Below are positions 22,908 through 29,183 of a stretch of DNA of 64,000 nt, in pieces (positions within the stretch are counted from its first letter, which is position 1; each line of letters begins with the position of its first letter). A program made the position numbers and the translations under genes. This DNA comes from Candidatus Hadarchaeota archaeon (GTDB lineage Archaea > CAYQAE01 > CAYVLA01): the NCBI GenBank assembly GCA_964621445.1, contig CAZUNO010000012.1:16516-80515 (forward strand), read 5' to 3'. A model generated the notes under the pieces. The model was given only the letters and a program-made list of their open reading frames with translations. It did no database searches and was not told the DNA's origin.

Positions 22908-23882
22908 ATGGTAACAAAAAACAGCCCAAATGATTCCTCCTTAAGCCTGAATGAAAAGGCCATGACCCTGGTTCAAAGACTTGTGGATAATGCCGCATAT
23001 TACAAAGTTGAGATATCCCGTCTAAAGGATGGATCTACCCTCATAGATGGAGGTTTGGAGGGTCAGGGAGGGCTGAGAGCCGGGGAATTAATTGCGGAGA
23101 TATCCATGGGAGGGCTAGGTTCGGTCGATCTCACCCGTTTGGATCTATTCGACCAGAAGTTCCCGGGCGTATATGTTTCTACCGATCACCCGCTGCTTTC
23201 CTGCCTTCTTTCACAGCTAGCAGGCTGGTCCATCAAGGTTGGTAAATTTCGTGCGCTGGGATCCGGGCCTGCCCGAGCCCTGGCCCAAACCGAAGCAGTT
23301 TTCGATGAATACAGCTATCATGATGACCATTCGGAGGGCGTGCTGATCCTGGAGACCTCAAAAAAGCCCTCCCACAAGGTATCTACATATGTCAGCAAGA
23401 AATGCAAAATCGACCCCAAGGACCTCTATATCGTGATTACCCCAACCTCAAGCCCCGCAGGAAACCTGCAGATCTGCTCCAGAATCGTGGAGACCGGGAT
23501 CCACAAGATGAACGAGCTGGATATCGACATCGGCATGATCCGATCGGGCATAGGTTCTTGCCCACTTCCCCCGCTCTGCAAAAATGACCTCACCATGATG
23601 GGCAGGACCAACGATGCAATTCTCTACGGCGGTATTACCCATTACCAATCCCTCGCCAGCTTGGCAAGGGACAAAATTGAATCCATCCCCTCCTGCTCAT
23701 CCCCGGATTATGGGAAGCCCTTCGAGGAGCTATTCAAGGCCGCAGGTGGGGATTTCTACAAACTCGATCAGGGGTTATTCAGCCCGGCCCTGGTCCAGAT
23801 AAACGATCTAGAAGAGGGAAGTTTTGACTCATCTGGCCTCGTAAACGAGGAGGTTCTGAAGGAGTCCTTCGACATCACCTAG
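22908..23882 (+). CDS. mch: methenyltetrahydromethanopterin cyclohydrolase
   Basis: SQLAGW, GSGPARAL, RIVETGIHK, MGRTNDAILYGG, DYGKPF, FSPA. Confidence 0.95.
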   Translation: MVTKNSPNDSSLSLNEKAMTLVQRLVDNAAYYKVEISRLKDGSTLIDGGLEGQGGLRAGELIAEISMGGLGSVDLTRLDLFDQKFPGVYVSTDHPLLSCLLSQLAGWSIKVGKFRALGSGPARALAQTEAVFDEYSYHDDHSEGVLILETSKKPSHKVSTYVSKKCKIDPKDLYIVITPTSSPAGNLQICSRIVETGIHKMNELDIDIGMIRSGIGSCPLPPLCKNDLTMMGRTNDAILYGGITHYQSLASLARDKIESIPSCSSPDYGKPFEELFKAAGGDFYKLDQGLFSPALVQINDLEEGSFDSSGLVNEEVLKESFDIT

Positions 23883-25524
23883 CAACCTCAATAGCCCGTT
23901 GCAGTATATCGCTGACCGCTTCATTACCAAGTGCACTTACCAGCGGGCCAAACCTCGGGCCAGATTTCTTTTTCAGCACCAACCGGTAGAGGATTCGGAA
24001 CATCCTTCCTGGTTTAACTCCATGATTCTTGGCTTCGCTAAAAATCGTGGACTGGATCTCGCCCGGTCCTGGGGAGGAGCGGATACAGGAATTTATCCTC
24101 TCTAGGGCTGAAATTTCATTCTCAGAGAGCTGGGAAACGAAATCGCGGTCCGGAACCTCGGCTAATGTGAGAGCCTGATCGGGGACATATGATTCCACCC
24201 AGCGAAGGCCGAACTGCAACCTCCTTCTTATGAACTCAACATCCTCACCGCTAAGTTCCTCACCGATTATACCCGATCTCTGAAGAGTTTCAAGTGCCTC
24301 CTGGATCTGGGTTTCCGGGTCGTATATCTGGGCAATTAATGAAGCGAAGGAGAAATCCACCATGGCAGGTCTCTTATCAGGGATATCGCCGAGTTGCGAA
24401 ATCTCATACAATCTGCTCATATGAGCTCTTTCTCGTTCATTTGAGGGAACCGTTATCCCGTAGTAGACATCGGCGTGGCGGTCATAATCGGAATAGAGCC
24501 TGGGTAGACCGCGCCAGGTAAAGCTTCTGGTCTTCATTAACTTCTTGTTATAGAGAAAACGGAGTAGTTCCGGGGGAGCAACCTGCAGCCACTGGGATGG
24601 ATAAACCACATTGCCAACTGATGCGCTCATCTTCTCTCCATCGATCATTAGATGCTCGTAGAAGAATGGCTCGGGCATGGGGTAATCGAGTATTCGTTCC
24701 ACGATCTCCCCGTTAACCCACCATGCGCTGGTTGGAACCTCGTACTCCTTTCCGCCACCTTCACAGGCCACGTTCCAGCGAGCCCATTCACTGGCCCATT
24801 CTCCCTTCCAAAGTAGCTTGCCCTCGTCACTAGTGGCCTCCGCCTCCCCGATATATCCACAGCCACGGGCCGTGGTCTTTTCGAAGTCGTAATCCCTGCA
24901 CTCGTATCTTACCTTCGTACCACGTAATTCAATTATTCGGGGGGTAATTATCTTTCCGCACTTGCTGCAGATCGGTTTCCAGGGGCTCCAGGTTTTAGAA
25001 AGTTCCGAATCCCGGTACTTACCCAGGATTTCCTTTACCTCGTCCACTTTTTGAAGGATACTCCTTATGTATGAGCTGAAAAAACCCTTCTTGTACTGCT
25101 CACGCATGGAGAAGATATCCATCTCGTTGGACACGAATTTGTGAATAACGTCGAGGTATTCTTCCTGATGGTGCTCCGCGTAGGATTGATGGCATCCCTG
25201 CGGGTCGGGAACATCGGTAACCGGTTTTCCAAGATAATCCTCATATTCCTTGGGAACCCCCCTTGGTATCTTTCTAAGAGGATCCATATCCTCAGCTACC
25301 CAGATCATCCTGGCATCTACCCCTGCATCCTCCAGAGCTGTAACCACGGAATCCGCCCGAATGGTATCGCTAAGGCGTCCTATGTGGAGCACCCCTGATA
25401 GAGAGGCTGAGGATTTAACCACATACAGGTCCCTCTTCTCGACTGGCTTGTCCAGGAAATGAAAGCTACTTCTTTGAATTATGTCTGCGGCCTTCTGATC
25501 GGCCCAGAAGAGTGATTCCTCCAT
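23875..25524 (-). CDS. lysS: class I lysine--tRNA ligase
   Basis: FWAD, SGVLHIG, DPLRKIP, GKLLWK.EW, KMSAS.GN, GPRFG. Confidence 0.95.
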   Translation of the reverse strand: MEESLFWADQKAADIIQRSSFHFLDKPVEKRDLYVVKSSASLSGVLHIGRLSDTIRADSVVTALEDAGVDARMIWVAEDMDPLRKIPRGVPKEYEDYLGKPVTDVPDPQGCHQSYAEHHQEEYLDVIHKFVSNEMDIFSMREQYKKGFFSSYIRSILQKVDEVKEILGKYRDSELSKTWSPWKPICSKCGKIITPRIIELRGTKVRYECRDYDFEKTTARGCGYIGEAEATSDEGKLLWKGEWASEWARWNVACEGGGKEYEVPTSAWWVNGEIVERILDYPMPEPFFYEHLMIDGEKMSASVGNVVYPSQWLQVAPPELLRFLYNKKLMKTRSFTWRGLPRLYSDYDRHADVYYGITVPSNERERAHMSRLYEISQLGDIPDKRPAMVDFSFASLIAQIYDPETQIQEALETLQRSGIIGEELSGEDVEFIRRRLQFGLRWVESYVPDQALTLAEVPDRDFVSQLSENEISALERINSCIRSSPGPGEIQSTIFSEAKNHGVKPGRMFRILYRLVLKKKSGPRFGPLVSALGNEAVSDILQRAIEVAR

Positions 25525-25558
25525 AAACACACCAAAAATACTAGTCGCGGGTCCAAGA

Positions 25559-25750
25559 TGCCGTTCGCCCCGGTTTTTACCGGTGGAGCGGGGTTCGAAC
25601 CCGCGACTTCCGTCTCAAATGAGACTCCGGATGTCCCAGTGACATGGCCGGTGAACCTATACTCGGTCTCCGTGCCCTAAGGTCTCCTATGAGTCCGGCG
25701 CGCTCTCCGGTCGAACCTTGAGGTTCGATAACCGGCTGCGCCATCCCGGC
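25559..25750 (-). tRNA. elongator tRNA-Met (CAT) with four predicted introns (20a/21, 37/38, ~45/46, 68/69)
   Basis: Exons 25750-25730, 25704-25688, 25632-25625, 25607-25585 and 25563-25559 join into a fully paired 74-nt cloverleaf GCCGGGA TG GCGC AGCCGGTTA GCGC G CCGGA CTCATAA TCCGG AGGTC GCGGG TTCGAAC CCCGC TCCCGGC A; BHB-like motifs at the junctions. Confidence 0.88.
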
Positions 25751-25782
25751 ATAGGTTCTCTGACGCGATGCCGGAAAAACGC

Positions 25783-25794
25783 ATATAAATATAT
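25783..25794. promoter_or_regulatory. TATA-box-like element between the divergent tRNA-Met and radical SAM genes
   Basis: ATATAAATATAT about 30 bp from both the tRNA 5' end and ATG 25824. Confidence 0.55.
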
Positions 25795-25823
25795 CTGCAT
25801 ATTCACCTTCCACGAGGTTCATT

Positions 25824-27329
25824 ATGACTACCCTAGTACAGGAAGTGGGAGGTTTTAGAAAACGTAAAGCCGATCTAAGGATCGCCCTCGTCTATCCCAA
25901 TATCTACCCGGTCGGGATGGCAAATCTGGGGCTCCACACGGTATATTCCCTCTTCAACTCCTATGAGAAAATTGCCTGCGAGAGGTTCTTCCTGGGGATG
26001 GACAAGTCCATGGAGACCAATACCCCCTTGGGCCTATTCGATGTCATCGCCTTCTCCCTTCAATACGAGATGGATTATACCAATGTTATCAAGATTCTCA
26101 AGTCATGCAACATCGAACCCGATAGGCGGAGAAGAAATGGACCCATGGTCATCGCCGGGGGGCCATGTTGTTTCAACCCCCTTCCCCTAACGGGCATCAT
26201 TGACCTGTTCGTTGTCGGTGAGATTGAACCTCTGGCCAATGACCTCGTCGAGGGTCTTCTCGAGGGCTATGGTACAGACGAGATGTCTTCAACTCCGGGT
26301 CTACTATCAAGTCAACTCCTGAACCTCACGAAGGCAGCTCGCGCAATGGATCTGGACTCAATTCCCGCTCCCCTAAATCAACCTCGCCCAGTGTCGGGAG
26401 TTAATCCGGCCCTGGGCGAGACTTTTCTGGTCGAGATATCGAGGGGATGCAACGTTAGATGCAGGTTCTGCATGTATTCCCATTGCACCTTCCCTAAAAG
26501 GGAGAGATCATTCCAGAGAATCAAGGAGGTAGTTGATAAGGGCCTGAAAATCACTAAATCTCCCAAGGTCTCATTGATTGGGGCCCTGGTTACGGATCAT
26601 TCCGAGATAAAGGAGATACTCCATTACCTGTCCGAGATCGGGGTCTCGGTCTCCCTTCCATCGATCAGAACTGATGGCGTGGACGATGAACTGATGGAAC
26701 TGATCAGGGCTCTTGGGGTTAGGACCTTGACAATTGCACCCGAGGGAAGCCCGAAAATTAGATCTACTCTCAAGAAGGGAATTTCGGAGGATAGCATAAG
26801 GTATGTGTCCGAGGCGGCGGTTGATTACGGCGTGGAAAAGCTTCGGATGTACTTCATCACCGGGGTTCCTGGAGAAACCACCCAAGACCTGGAGTATATC
26901 GCAAACCTGTCAGCCGATCTCTCGAGGATTTACGGAAGACGCCGCGTTACCGCCAGCGTTAACCCCCTGGTTCCTAAACCCCACACGCCGGCGGAATTCC
27001 TTCCCATGTCTAAACGTGGGCGACTGAAATCAAATTATTCCTTTCTTAGAAAATTCACCCCGGATTCCGTCAACCTGAACTTGCAGAGCATAAGAGAGTC
27101 AATTATACAGGCCTATCTGGCCAAAGGAACGGCCATAACCGCTAAGGTGCTATTATCGATGGATACCGGCTCCACGAGCTATGGCGAATGGAAACGAGCG
27201 GCAGAAAGGGAGGGAGACTCCATTAATCGGATATTTTCACCTCCTGACGATACCCCCTGGGACATCGTAGATTCTGGTTTAAACCGGAGCTATCTTAAAA
27301 GACAGCACCAATCCATGCTGCAAAATTAA
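25824..27329 (+). CDS. radical SAM protein (TIGR03960-like / B12-binding-associated family)
   Basis: YPNIYPVGMANLG, EISRGCNVRCRFC (CxxxCxxC), SLPSIR, TLTIAPE, VPKPHTP. Confidence 0.88.
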   Translation: MTTLVQEVGGFRKRKADLRIALVYPNIYPVGMANLGLHTVYSLFNSYEKIACERFFLGMDKSMETNTPLGLFDVIAFSLQYEMDYTNVIKILKSCNIEPDRRRRNGPMVIAGGPCCFNPLPLTGIIDLFVVGEIEPLANDLVEGLLEGYGTDEMSSTPGLLSSQLLNLTKAARAMDLDSIPAPLNQPRPVSGVNPALGETFLVEISRGCNVRCRFCMYSHCTFPKRERSFQRIKEVVDKGLKITKSPKVSLIGALVTDHSEIKEILHYLSEIGVSVSLPSIRTDGVDDELMELIRALGVRTLTIAPEGSPKIRSTLKKGISEDSIRYVSEAAVDYGVEKLRMYFITGVPGETTQDLEYIANLSADLSRIYGRRRVTASVNPLVPKPHTPAEFLPMSKRGRLKSNYSFLRKFTPDSVNLNLQSIRESIIQAYLAKGTAITAKVLLSMDTGSTSYGEWKRAAEREGDSINRIFSPPDDTPWDIVDSGLNRSYLKRQHQSMLQN

Positions 27330-27426
27330 AAGAATTCCGCCTGCCATTTGGAATTTTAGCATTGAGATTAACCTAAGAGGGTTTTATTAGCGTCTGAGAA
27401 AGCATTAATAGCCACGTCAAAACACT

Positions 27427-28134
27427 ATGTATCTAGGAGATCTAGTCTTGTTTTGTCCTCGCTGTAATGAAAGGATTAGCGAGAGTTGGACCTACTGTCC
27501 CCGATGTGGAGCAAAGCTTCCAGGTTCCAAAAATTCCTCTGGCCAGGAGATTAATGGATCATTTAATGATATGTTCGAGGATATCCGAAAGCAGATGAAG
27601 GATGCCCTGAAGGATGATCTTTCGGGAGATATCGAGTTCTTTGATCTTAAGCCCGAATTTCTCAAGAAACATCCCTTATTCAGATCGGGAGGGTTCCGAG
27701 TAAAGATAACCAGGGCCGGTGATGGACCACCGGATATCGACATTAAGGCCTTCGGTGATATAGATGAGAAGACGGCCGAGAAGATACAGAAAGCCATGAA
27801 GAAACAAAAGGTAAATCTTGATGACAGGAAGGAAAGGGAAGAGAAAGAGCAGGAAAAAGGGTCCAAGAAACAGGAAACCCGGTACAAACAGATCTCGGAA
27901 TACAGGGAACCGACCTGCGAGACCAAATGGGCCGGGGATCACTTGGTAGTGGAGCTAGATCTACCTGGTGTAAAGAGTGAGGACCATATCGACATTAGAA
28001 AGCTAACCGAGAGCATCGAGATCAAGGCATTTGCCGGAAATCAAGGGTACTTCAAGATCCTAAGCATACCAGAGGACGCAAAATTGTTCAAGAAGGAGTT
28101 CCGAGACCACAAGCTCAAATTGAATATCAAATAG
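27427..28134 (+). CDS. zinc-ribbon + Hsp20-like C-terminal domain protein
   Basis: CPRC...YCPRCG; VELDLPGVKSEDHIDI..LTESIEIKA. Confidence 0.7.
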   Translation: MYLGDLVLFCPRCNERISESWTYCPRCGAKLPGSKNSSGQEINGSFNDMFEDIRKQMKDALKDDLSGDIEFFDLKPEFLKKHPLFRSGGFRVKITRAGDGPPDIDIKAFGDIDEKTAEKIQKAMKKQKVNLDDRKEREEKEQEKGSKKQETRYKQISEYREPTCETKWAGDHLVVELDLPGVKSEDHIDIRKLTESIEIKAFAGNQGYFKILSIPEDAKLFKKEFRDHKLKLNIK

Positions 28135-28180
28135 GTCTCCTCCTCGAAACATTAAAGAATTCTCTCGCCCTCCTCAATCC

Positions 28181-28255
28181 AGCGAGGTGGGGCAGCCAGG
28201 AGTGCCCGACGGGCTCATAACCCGTAGGTCAGTGGTTCAAATCCACTCCTCGCTA
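28181..28255 (+). tRNA. initiator tRNA-Met (CAT), intronless
   Basis: AGCGAGG/CCTCGCT acceptor with A1-U72, anticodon stem ACGGG/CCCGT with three G-C pairs, CTCATAA loop, GGTTCAAATCC T arm. Confidence 0.97.
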
Positions 28256-28298
28256 TTCTTGCTTTTATTCCCGGAAAATTATCTTTATTTGCCAATCT

Positions 28299-29183
28299 CT
28301 ATCGTTTTCCCAGCCATTTTTCCAGGAAACCTATGTCACCTGGATCGACACCTAACTTTTCGCTAACCACAAAAGGTGTTGGACAAGCATTTTCAACATT
28401 ATGTATATCGCTCCCCAGCACCAGCTTTCCTCCCGAATCTATGAATTCTTCCAGGAAGTAGATGTACCTTTCGGCAAATGATTGGTGATTCATTGCCAAT
28501 ATCCTGCCCCAGCTTGATTGGTTTATTTCCAAAGGCACATTACGACTATCGGAGACCGCTGCTAACCTTCTAACATCAATTCCAAGAAGCTCCTGTACAT
28601 CGCTTAGAGGATCGCCAATGGACATAAGAGGGGGGAACGGGTCCTGCTTTGGCATCTTAGGCCCAACGCCGGTCTTGCCCAGCATATCATTGATCAATGC
28701 CCTTAGAGGATGGGCCAAGAATCCCGGAACACCGTACTCCTCCCTTACCTCCGAGATGACTTCCATTCCCCGAATGAGGTAATCTCCTAGCTCGACTCCA
28801 TTATCCGGTCTACTTGGTTCTCCTATTATGAAGTCCACCTCGGCCTCCTCCATGGCCGATCTACCGGTTTCCGATTCGAAATGAGCTAGCCCGATTTCGG
28901 GGGAGAAAAGAATGATCGCGCCCGGGAAATGATCCTTTTCCTCTCTTACTTCCTTGGCGAATATCCTATATCCACCGAGGGTCCCGGGGTAGTGATTCAG
29001 CCTTGCGCTAGCACCGAGGGTAAAACGCCCGAAATGATCCGTTACACCGATAATCCTGCGGCCACTGGCGACTGCAAAGGAAATGAAATCATGAAGCGAA
29101 CAGCCCTTGGGTCTTTCGGTACCAGCGTGAAAATGGAGGTCTATGTTGAAGAGCTCCAGGTTATCCCAGCTTGGGGGTTCCAT
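28299..29183 (-). CDS. PHP-domain-like metallohydrolase
   Basis: DLHFH, GVTDH, LAHP, LEIN, GSDIH. Confidence 0.75.
   Translation of the reverse strand: MEPPSWDNLELFNIDLHFHAGTERPKGCSLHDFISFAVASGRRIIGVTDHFGRFTLGASARLNHYPGTLGGYRIFAKEVREEKDHFPGAIILFSPEIGLAHFESETGRSAMEEAEVDFIIGEPSRPDNGVELGDYLIRGMEVISEVREEYGVPGFLAHPLRALINDMLGKTGVGPKMPKQDPFPPLMSIGDPLSDVQELLGIDVRRLAAVSDSRNVPLEINQSSWGRILAMNHQSFAERYIYFLEEFIDSGGKLVLGSDIHNVENACPTPFVVSEKLGVDPGDIGFLEKWLGKR

Follow-up and report, generated by a model that had tools for sequence, protein, structure and literature searches.

Several introns within one transfer RNA (tRNA) gene are a described feature of two groups of archaea. For the first, the Thermoproteales (Pyrobaculum, Thermofilum, Caldivirga; Sugahara et al. 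2007/2008), the accessible portions of a 2014 review (PMC4033280) and of a further paper (PMC8450103) give three introns as the maximum per tRNA gene. For the second, comprising three Asgard families, as many as five intervening sequences within a single tRNA gene and an average of 2.2 inserts per gene are described in the available part of an October 2026 preprint (10.64898/2026.10.13.758758), according to which tRNAscan-SE misses many of the D-arm inserts. In addition, over half the tRNA genes in three Asgard genomes are given multiple introns in the accessible text of PMC11291895. Here, we describe a gene for elongator tRNA-Met that is divided into five exons by four inserts of the bulge-helix-bulge (BHB) type. 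It occupies 192 nucleotides (nt) on the minus strand (25750–25559) of the window, a stretch of 64,000 nt from contig CAZUNO010000012.1 of an assembly of Candidatus Hadarchaeota archaeon (GCA_964621445.1). Comparison with related genomes makes it very likely that the locus is a real, single-copy, four-intron gene. An original prediction, which was made from the letters of the DNA without database searches, took three introns per gene as the maximum, in agreement with the portions of the reviewed literature that were available (PMC4033280, PMC8450103). It added that four introns may be exceptional, an expectation that is overtaken by the up to five given for Asgard archaea in the part of the preprint that could be seen (10.64898/2026.10.13.758758).

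As far as the available parts of those sources describe them, the Thermoproteales genes share with this genome short BHB introns at canonical and many non-canonical sites, several of them in a gene (PMC4033280, PMC8450103), neighbouring motifs that cannot all form at once and a broad-specificity endonuclease encoded in the genome (here a candidate). The intron load is likewise about one per gene. The differences lie in the number of introns, a maximum of three per gene there against four here, and in the endonuclease, which is an alpha2-beta2 heterotetramer there and is represented by a two-unit form and an ARMAN-type three-unit form here. With the Asgard families (Freyr-, Jordi- and Atabeyarchaeaceae) the locus has in common, within what the accessible text covers, at least four inserts in one gene, D-arm inserts that are missed by standard software, insertion at BHB boundaries and gain lineage by lineage. 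In contrast, the same partial sources give those families 2.2 inserts per gene and up to five in one gene, as opposed to about one per gene here with Met alone reaching four. This genome does not belong to those families, as a phylum of five species in two families does not fit the large Asgardarchaeota.

A third relevant system is the splicing endonuclease EndA of ARMAN-2 (Candidatus Micrarchaeum acidiphilum). In the accessible text of PMC3488258, the structure 4FZ2 is an epsilon2, three-unit EndA that cuts both strict and relaxed motifs, and its activity needs Y236, H251 and K282, plus K161 in a type-specific loop. The likeness to the present genome comprises a single three-unit EndA of about 400 residues that aligns end to end and keeps the catalytic triad and the specificity lysine, and a host with relaxed-motif tRNA introns, in the T loop and elsewhere (PMC3239211, PMC3488258, each available in part; PDB 4FZ2). 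Unlike ARMAN-2, the organism here also keeps a two-unit EndA, and its genome is 3.2 Mb and not ultrasmall; dimer formation and the substrate range of its three-unit EndA would be predictions from the likeness. What the present case adds is the lineage, this particular gene and its co-occurrence with an ARMAN-type enzyme; the kind of thing is already known.

A tRNA-Met gene in five exons and its conservation

The features of the locus are collected in Table 1. When the four inserts are removed by coordinates in a script, a tRNA-Met(CAU) of 74 nt is left, which ARAGORN calls as tRNA-Met(cat) with 21 of 21 stem pairs formed: an acceptor stem of 7 base pairs (bp), a D stem of 4 bp, an anticodon stem of 5 bp, a variable loop of 5 nt and a T stem of 5 bp. 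The joined tRNA has a D loop with GG, the T loop TTCGAAC, A73 and a 3' end that reads ...CGGCA. Its anticodon loop, CTCATAA, is 7 nt long with CAU, U33 and a purine at 37. The splice motifs were counted as central pairs of four, contiguous intron-helix pairs (a count that may extend into the loop) and contiguous exon-helix pairs, giving 4/8/0 for intron 1, 4/1/5 for intron 2, 3/4/0 for intron 3 and 4/5/2 for intron 4. Introns 1, 2 and 4 therefore have all four central pairs, and their flanking helices are of 7–8, 5 and 5+2 pairs. A second register of intron 1, of 23 nt, also has four of four central pairs and would enlarge the D loop from 9 to 11 nt; for introns 1 and 3 the borders carry an uncertainty of 1–2 nt. 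The original prediction of a tRNA-Met in five exons, interrupted by four BHB-type inserts, is supported. Its exon and insert coordinates and lengths were exact on re-cutting, the motif strings that it gave for introns 1 and 2 are correct, and its remark that intron 3 is the least clean is borne out by the three central pairs of four.

The collection used for comparison (GTDB 232) holds five species of this phylum: four in one family (G000–G003, where G000 is the present genome) and one, G004, in another. All three of the other family genomes carry the gene at the syntenic site, directly upstream of a class I lysyl-tRNA synthetase as here, and each of these orthologues has all four inserts in the same places. 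The neighbouring synthetase proteins are 61–64% identical, so the genomes compared are not near-identical. Across the four genomes, 68 of 74 exon columns are invariant, as against 70 of 118 intron columns, and the differences fall in hairpin loops or come as paired changes. All 84 cells of the cloverleaf stems are paired, with 21/21 stem pairs in each genome.

Further support comes from the splice-motif helices, which are paired in 143 of 144 cells with six pairs changed on both sides, a result equalled by 2 of 500 shuffles. All six belong to intron 1, where one central pair, made by a D-loop base and an intron base, and five hairpin pairs have changed on both sides and still pair. The central helix of intron 2 is paired in 16 of 16 cells, with a single one-sided change from U-G to U-A. 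In intron 3 the stem TCTC/GAGA is invariant and its 4-nt loop is different in each of the four genomes. The 40 cells of the three helices of intron 4 are all paired, and its hairpin loop differs between genomes in length and in sequence.

Intron 2 is long for this genome, in which the other introns have 14–31 nt, and is unusually conserved among genera, chiefly in its first 18 nt (orthologues L009, L010 and L011). When box C/D motifs of a guide RNA were looked for by eye in intron 2 of the four genomes, none were seen.

In the other family, the elongator Met gene of G004 is 116 nt long, and its approximately 41 extra nt are confined to the anticodon arm. Read by eye, they make up a 21-nt insert in the anticodon stem and a 20-nt insert at or beside 37/38. 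The gene is uninterrupted in its 5' part through the D arm, and again from the 3' strand of the anticodon stem onwards. A motif search for the anticodon arm gave no match in the G004 genome; the gene came from the Rfam hits of that genome. As the G004 gene is interrupted only in the anticodon arm, the introns of the D loop, variable loop and acceptor stem are either specific to the family of the present genome or were lost in that of G004.

The body of the joined tRNA, with G1:C72 and the anticodon stem CCGGA/TCCGG, has no initiator marks and is not tRNA-Ile-like. Rfam finds two other CAT genes in the genome. One is intron-less, lies 2.4 kb from the elongator gene and has A1:U72 and GGG/CCC in the anticodon stem. 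The combination of A1:U72 with three G:C pairs at the anticodon stem we take to be the mark of an initiator, which makes this gene the presumed initiator tRNA-Met. The other, on contig C13, has an acceptor stem and D arm in common with tRNA-Ile(GAT) and is presumably tRNA-Ile2. Compact CAT anticodon arms number 58 in the genome, and only those of the initiator and Ile2-type genes sit in a tRNA. The 17-nt anticodon exon has no further match in any of the four family genomes. A check for another elongator tRNA-Met gene, as advised by the original prediction, found none in the assembly, which is 96% complete and in 89 contigs. As the only elongator tRNA-Met found, the four-intron gene ought to be essential. 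Of the related genomes, G001 has a 75-nt tRNA hit about 2.4 kb from its orthologue, and the initiator gene of G004 carries a canonical intron.

Standard gene finders could miss the gene, according to the original prediction, and this holds for ARAGORN and for Rfam/Infernal. On the unspliced 301-nt stretch ARAGORN reports no genes, even with its intron option. Rfam misses the unspliced gene at the gathering score, and a genome-wide run of its tRNA model at E <= 1 does not report it either; at E <= 10, the 351 nt around the gene give three chance matches, none to a tRNA or snoRNA family. The four orthologous Met genes are absent from the Rfam tRNA hits of their own genomes. The calls that ARAGORN makes across the genome in intron mode, with introns of 246–2214 nt, are regarded as false.

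The inserts are also present in other assemblies. A contig from a second run of the same study covers a whole 501-nt stretch with zero differences, and a third run of that study covers 25546–25738. A run from another study covers 25400–25661 with 8 differences, only one of which is in the gene (25577, in the loop of intron 4). None of the contigs of other runs that cover the locus joins across an insert. Independence can be claimed only for the run from the other study, since the second and third runs belong to the study of the likely source. Among RNA runs, none was listed that covers 23875–28300 of the window. DNA of the organism was found in runs labelled as microbial-mat and hypersaline-lake metagenomes.

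Table 1. The tRNA-Met locus and neighbouring features, in positions of the window
Feature	Position	Strand	Description
TATA-box-like element TTTATATG, putative promoter	25782..25789	-	about 32–39 nt upstream of tRNA position 1; invariant in 4 orthologous loci, where the remaining upstream spacer varies
Exon 1, 21 nt	25730..25750	-	acceptor 5' strand, positions 8–9, D-stem 5' strand, D loop to 20a; 2–3 substitutions in the three orthologues
Intron 1, 25 nt	25705..25729	-	D loop, 20a/21, HBh' type; central helix CCGG/CCGG, bulges TT/A and AG/A (slash, cut), 7-bp hairpin
Exon 2, 17 nt	25688..25704	-	position 21, D-stem 3' strand, 26, anticodon-stem 5' strand, 32–37 with anticodon CAT; identical in four genomes
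Intron 2, 55 nt	25633..25687	-	canonical site, 37/38; central helix CTCA/TGGG, bulges TA/G and AC/A, outer helix is the anticodon stem (5-bp exon helix)
Exon 3, 8 nt	25625..25632	-	position 38, anticodon-stem 3' strand, positions 44–45; invariant in four genomes
Intron 3, 17 nt	25608..25624	-	variable loop, 45/46, relaxed motif; borders +/- 1 nt per side
Exon 4, 23 nt	25585..25607	-	positions 46–48, whole T arm, acceptor 3' strand 66–68; one T-loop substitution in orthologues
Intron 4, 21 nt	25564..25584	-	acceptor stem, 68/69; central helix CGCT/GGCG, bulges CC/A and AA/C, hairpin CCGG/CCGG, 2-bp outer helix
Exon 5, 5 nt	25559..25563	-	acceptor 3' strand 69–72 and discriminator A73; invariant in four genomes
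T run, possible terminator	25534..25538	-	about 20 nt past the tRNA 3' end, just ahead of the lysyl-tRNA synthetase start; same place in 4 loci
Open frame, 81 codons	25577..25822	-	same strand as the tRNA gene and overlapping it; no Pfam match; likely a false gene call
Methenyl-tetrahydromethanopterin cyclohydrolase (MCH)	22908..23882	+	neighbour
Radical SAM protein with Radical_SAM_N2	25824..27329	+	neighbour
Presumed initiator tRNA-Met (CAT)	28181..28255	+	see text

A/T-rich boxes are found at a similar distance upstream of many other tRNA genes in the genome. The neighbouring MCH gene points to a tetrahydromethanopterin-dependent C1 pathway in the organism.

Weighing the four-intron reading

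Several results weigh against the reading of this locus as a working four-intron gene. In a search of our own, the cloverleaf was read outward from the T arm with one skipped stretch of 10–150 nt allowed per arm and with no splice-motif filter. Whether started from the gene or from just the T arm, it gave the four inserts as its best solution; among 266 shuffles of the flanks that left the T arm intact and preserved dinucleotides, three came up to the gene's own score of 44.5. From 24 T-arm-like seeds outside solved genes, for five of which the search was not completed, 12 were solved, and nine of these are not tRNA-like, with scores of 34.5 to 42.0 versus 44.5 here. The appearance of a cloverleaf after excision is about a 1-in-100 event under so flexible a search, and alone it is only suggestive. 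As shuffles and non-tRNA seeds score close to the gene, the search score was rejected as a test of reality. The cloverleaf by itself proves little, so the case rests on conservation in related genomes. Further points are that the covariation is confined to intron 1 and that the exon stems have no compensating changes. The helices of introns 2, 3 and 4 barely vary and so say nothing for or against their motifs. With the usual AGGTC variable loop as the product, intron 3 has three of four central pairs, with a G-A mismatch; its best local helix, TCCG/CGGA plus TCTC/GAGA with two clean 3-nt bulges and four of four central pairs, shifts the cuts by one base per side and leaves a variable loop of 3 nt. 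Finally, in an assembly that is 96% complete a second Met gene could lie on the missing DNA, and the evidence for four introns consists of DNA and its comparison between genomes.

The two features of intron 3 give rise to two other accounts of the same insert. In one, the same four introns are removed and intron 3 is cut after 44 and after 46, so that the mature tRNA has 72 nt; its merits are the full set of central pairs, a 4-bp intron helix and the clean bulges just described, and the comparison gives no decision, as all the bases concerned are invariant in the four genomes. Such cuts would delete G46 and shorten the stretch that bears C48, the partner of G15, whereas the cuts of Table 1 leave the common AGGTC loop, which corresponds to AGATC in the Met gene of the other family. 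Moreover, AA precedes the cut in about one third of the listed inserts and in intron 3 as tabulated. Archaeal cytoplasmic tRNAs are not known to have variable loops of 3 nt. The shifted cuts are considered very unlikely, and the AGGTC register is preferred because its product is normal, because the loop of the G004 Met gene is a plain AGATC and because intron 3 then shares the build of about one third of the listed inserts. In the other account only three introns are removed, and the mature tRNA retains the 17-nt insert as a hairpin within a class-II-like variable arm that is 22 nt long. A variable arm would look like this insert, with its 4-bp stem and a 4-nt loop that differs between genomes, the splice motif of intron 3 is the weakest of the four (three of four central pairs), and four further class I tRNA genes (Ile2, Ile GAU, Lys CUU and Tyr) have hairpin inserts of 21–26 nt at about the same site. 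Against these stand the recurrence of the build of intron 3 in D-loop, anticodon-stem, T-loop and acceptor-stem inserts of the genome, where retention would ruin the tRNA, the full motif (4/8/6) of the Tyr insert at the same site and the plain 5-nt variable loop of the G004 Met gene. We know of no elongator tRNA-Met with a long variable arm, and retention of the hairpin is regarded as highly improbable.

The locus could also be a decaying or silent copy, with the working elongator tRNA-Met on DNA that is missing from the assembly. The completeness of 96%, the 89 contigs, the absence of the stretch from the RNA runs on record and the failure to find genes for several tRNAs (His, Asn, Cys and Trp) speak for such a view. 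The invariance of 68 of 74 exon columns, the pairing of all 84 stem cells and the intact splice helices with compensating changes, between genomes whose synthetases are only 61–64% identical, are however not what a silent copy would show; the same picture is seen in all four family genomes, and the anticodon exon has no second match. This explanation is hardly credible, and the locus is treated below as a real gene with all four introns removed.

Splicing enzymes and a proposed pathway

PF01974 is found in two open frames of the genome, which gives two EndA genes. The first encodes a protein of 347 residues with an N-terminal domain and two catalytic-domain matches. Along its length it aligns with Archaeoglobus-type entries for the two-unit enzyme, whereas crenarchaeal catalytic subunits are nearest to its C-terminal unit. 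The second encodes a protein of 402 residues, of which 20–402 align to 13–387 of 4FZ2_A (E 2.6e-74); the residues that match Y236, H251, K282, R275, W384 and K161 are all identical. By this alignment, the protein is assigned as an ARMAN-type, three-unit (epsilon) EndA. The type of EndA, which the original prediction had wished to see determined, is by sequence both two-unit and ARMAN-type three-unit. The gene for the three-unit enzyme is full length in G000, G001 and G002 and is split over two contig ends in G003. In G004, the same three-unit query gives only a weak match, in a frame of 190 codons. RtcB ligase is also encoded in the genome (E 3.9e-183).

From the anatomy, the conservation and the presence of these enzymes, a pathway can be inferred. 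Transcription, probably from the TATA-like box, would yield a precursor with about 190 nt in addition to its leader and trailer. EndA would then excise the four introns at BHB structures that are built from exon and intron sequence, RtcB would join the five exons into the 74-nt tRNA, and CCA would be added thereafter. The three-unit EndA is the likely enzyme for introns 1, 3 and 4, because its ARMAN-2 member cuts relaxed motifs at non-canonical positions.

The order of the cuts may be constrained by the fold of the precursor. In the minimum-energy fold, the motifs of introns 1, 3 and 4 are present together and the canonical motif of intron 2 is absent. The central helix of intron 3 and the outer helix of intron 2 both require positions 40–43, the anticodon-stem 3' strand. 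In addition, the central helix of intron 4 takes positions 63–66, part of the T stem (3' strand). As the helices of introns 2 and 3 share positions 40–43, the precursor must refold between cuts. The folding model thus predicts stepwise splicing with refolding, in which introns 2 and 3 would not be removable from one conformer.

Interruption of other tRNA genes and its meaning

Among the 38 Rfam tRNA hits of the genome, our solver finds 9 with no insert, 18 with one and 7 with two, and leaves 4 unsolved. Genes in which one arm holds two inserts, among them the Met gene of G004, are beyond its reach, so that these insert counts may be low. Two inserts are assigned by the solver to Asp(GTC) and to Ala(GGC), two or three to Ser(GCT) and three to Gln(TTG). 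Three more genes come from a profile search and were read by eye: Gln(CTG), with two inserts, and a pair of Pro genes, one with 2 and one with about 3. No rebuilt gene other than Met has four introns, and the load is about one intron per gene. Many of the genes that Rfam misses in this genome are missed because of T-loop or acceptor-stem introns. Searches by Rfam, by ARAGORN, from T-arm seeds and with a profile built on the tRNAs of this genome yielded no gene for tRNA-His, Asn, Cys or Trp; these may be more broken up, split or on missing DNA. The four relatives have 30–35 Rfam hits each, mostly of 85–144 nt.

Many of the non-canonical introns in this genome have one build, in which a single nt (mostly A) is followed by a hairpin, then by four nt pairing with the exon upstream, and by AA before the cut. 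Examples are C19:3831-3954, C3:156738-156861, C7:6658-6805 and C6:118610-118712, and several end in GGCGAA or GGGGAA. A T-loop intron at 53/54 recurs in Ala(CGC), Ala(GGC) and Gln(TTG). Introns 3 (in the preferred register) and 4 of the Met gene share the recurrent build, as do about one third of the listed inserts in all. The recurrence suggests a family of related mini-introns, and its occurrence at many positions in the genome hints at gene-to-gene copying.

Two other sets of tRNA-like sequences were observed. At C45:5941-6025 (+) and C15:2241-2324 (+), a serine-type body (long variable arm, G73 and a GC-rich acceptor) is combined with the anticodon loop TTGAAAA, that is, GAA for Phe; a related one lies at C85:173-250 (-), and a normal tRNA-Phe(GAA) is present elsewhere in the genome. 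Both Ser-bodied genes are flanked by an inverted repeat, GTGCCGGA... upstream and ...TCCGGCAC downstream. These could be mis-read, intron-containing Ser genes, parts of a mobile element or a recoding tRNA. In the second set, the 3' end of a Thr-type tRNA, made up of T arm and acceptor strand, is present twice, at C50:4168-4188 (-) and C22:40152-40172 (-), each time preceded by the same non-tRNA sequence (...CTTTTCTACTTGAG). To judge from this arrangement, the two copies look like the duplicated attachment sites of integrated elements.

We propose, tentatively and with slightly less than even confidence, that a third separate archaeal lineage built multi-intron tRNA genes independently of the Thermoproteales and the Asgard archaea, and that, in the one family with a full-length three-unit EndA, the sole elongator tRNA-Met gained three extra mini-introns of common build. 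A specialist should be moderately surprised, since four and five introns per gene are already reported in the accessible part of the preprint. With the present case, heavily interrupted tRNA genes extend to another lineage, here alongside an ARMAN-type endonuclease, which adds one more independent case for the study of how such introns arrive and why they persist. It also offers a natural comparison within one class: there are four introns in one family, and in the other the extra sequence is only in the anticodon arm and no three-unit enzyme is found with the query used.

As the sole elongator tRNA-Met is invisible to ARAGORN and Rfam, automatic annotation would give a genome without this tRNA-Met and possibly with a false protein from the 81-codon frame. 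If the proposal of a third lineage is true, all protein synthesis in these cells would hang on eight exact cuts and four ligations, and their order would be obligatory, given that introns 2 and 3 have mutually exclusive motifs.

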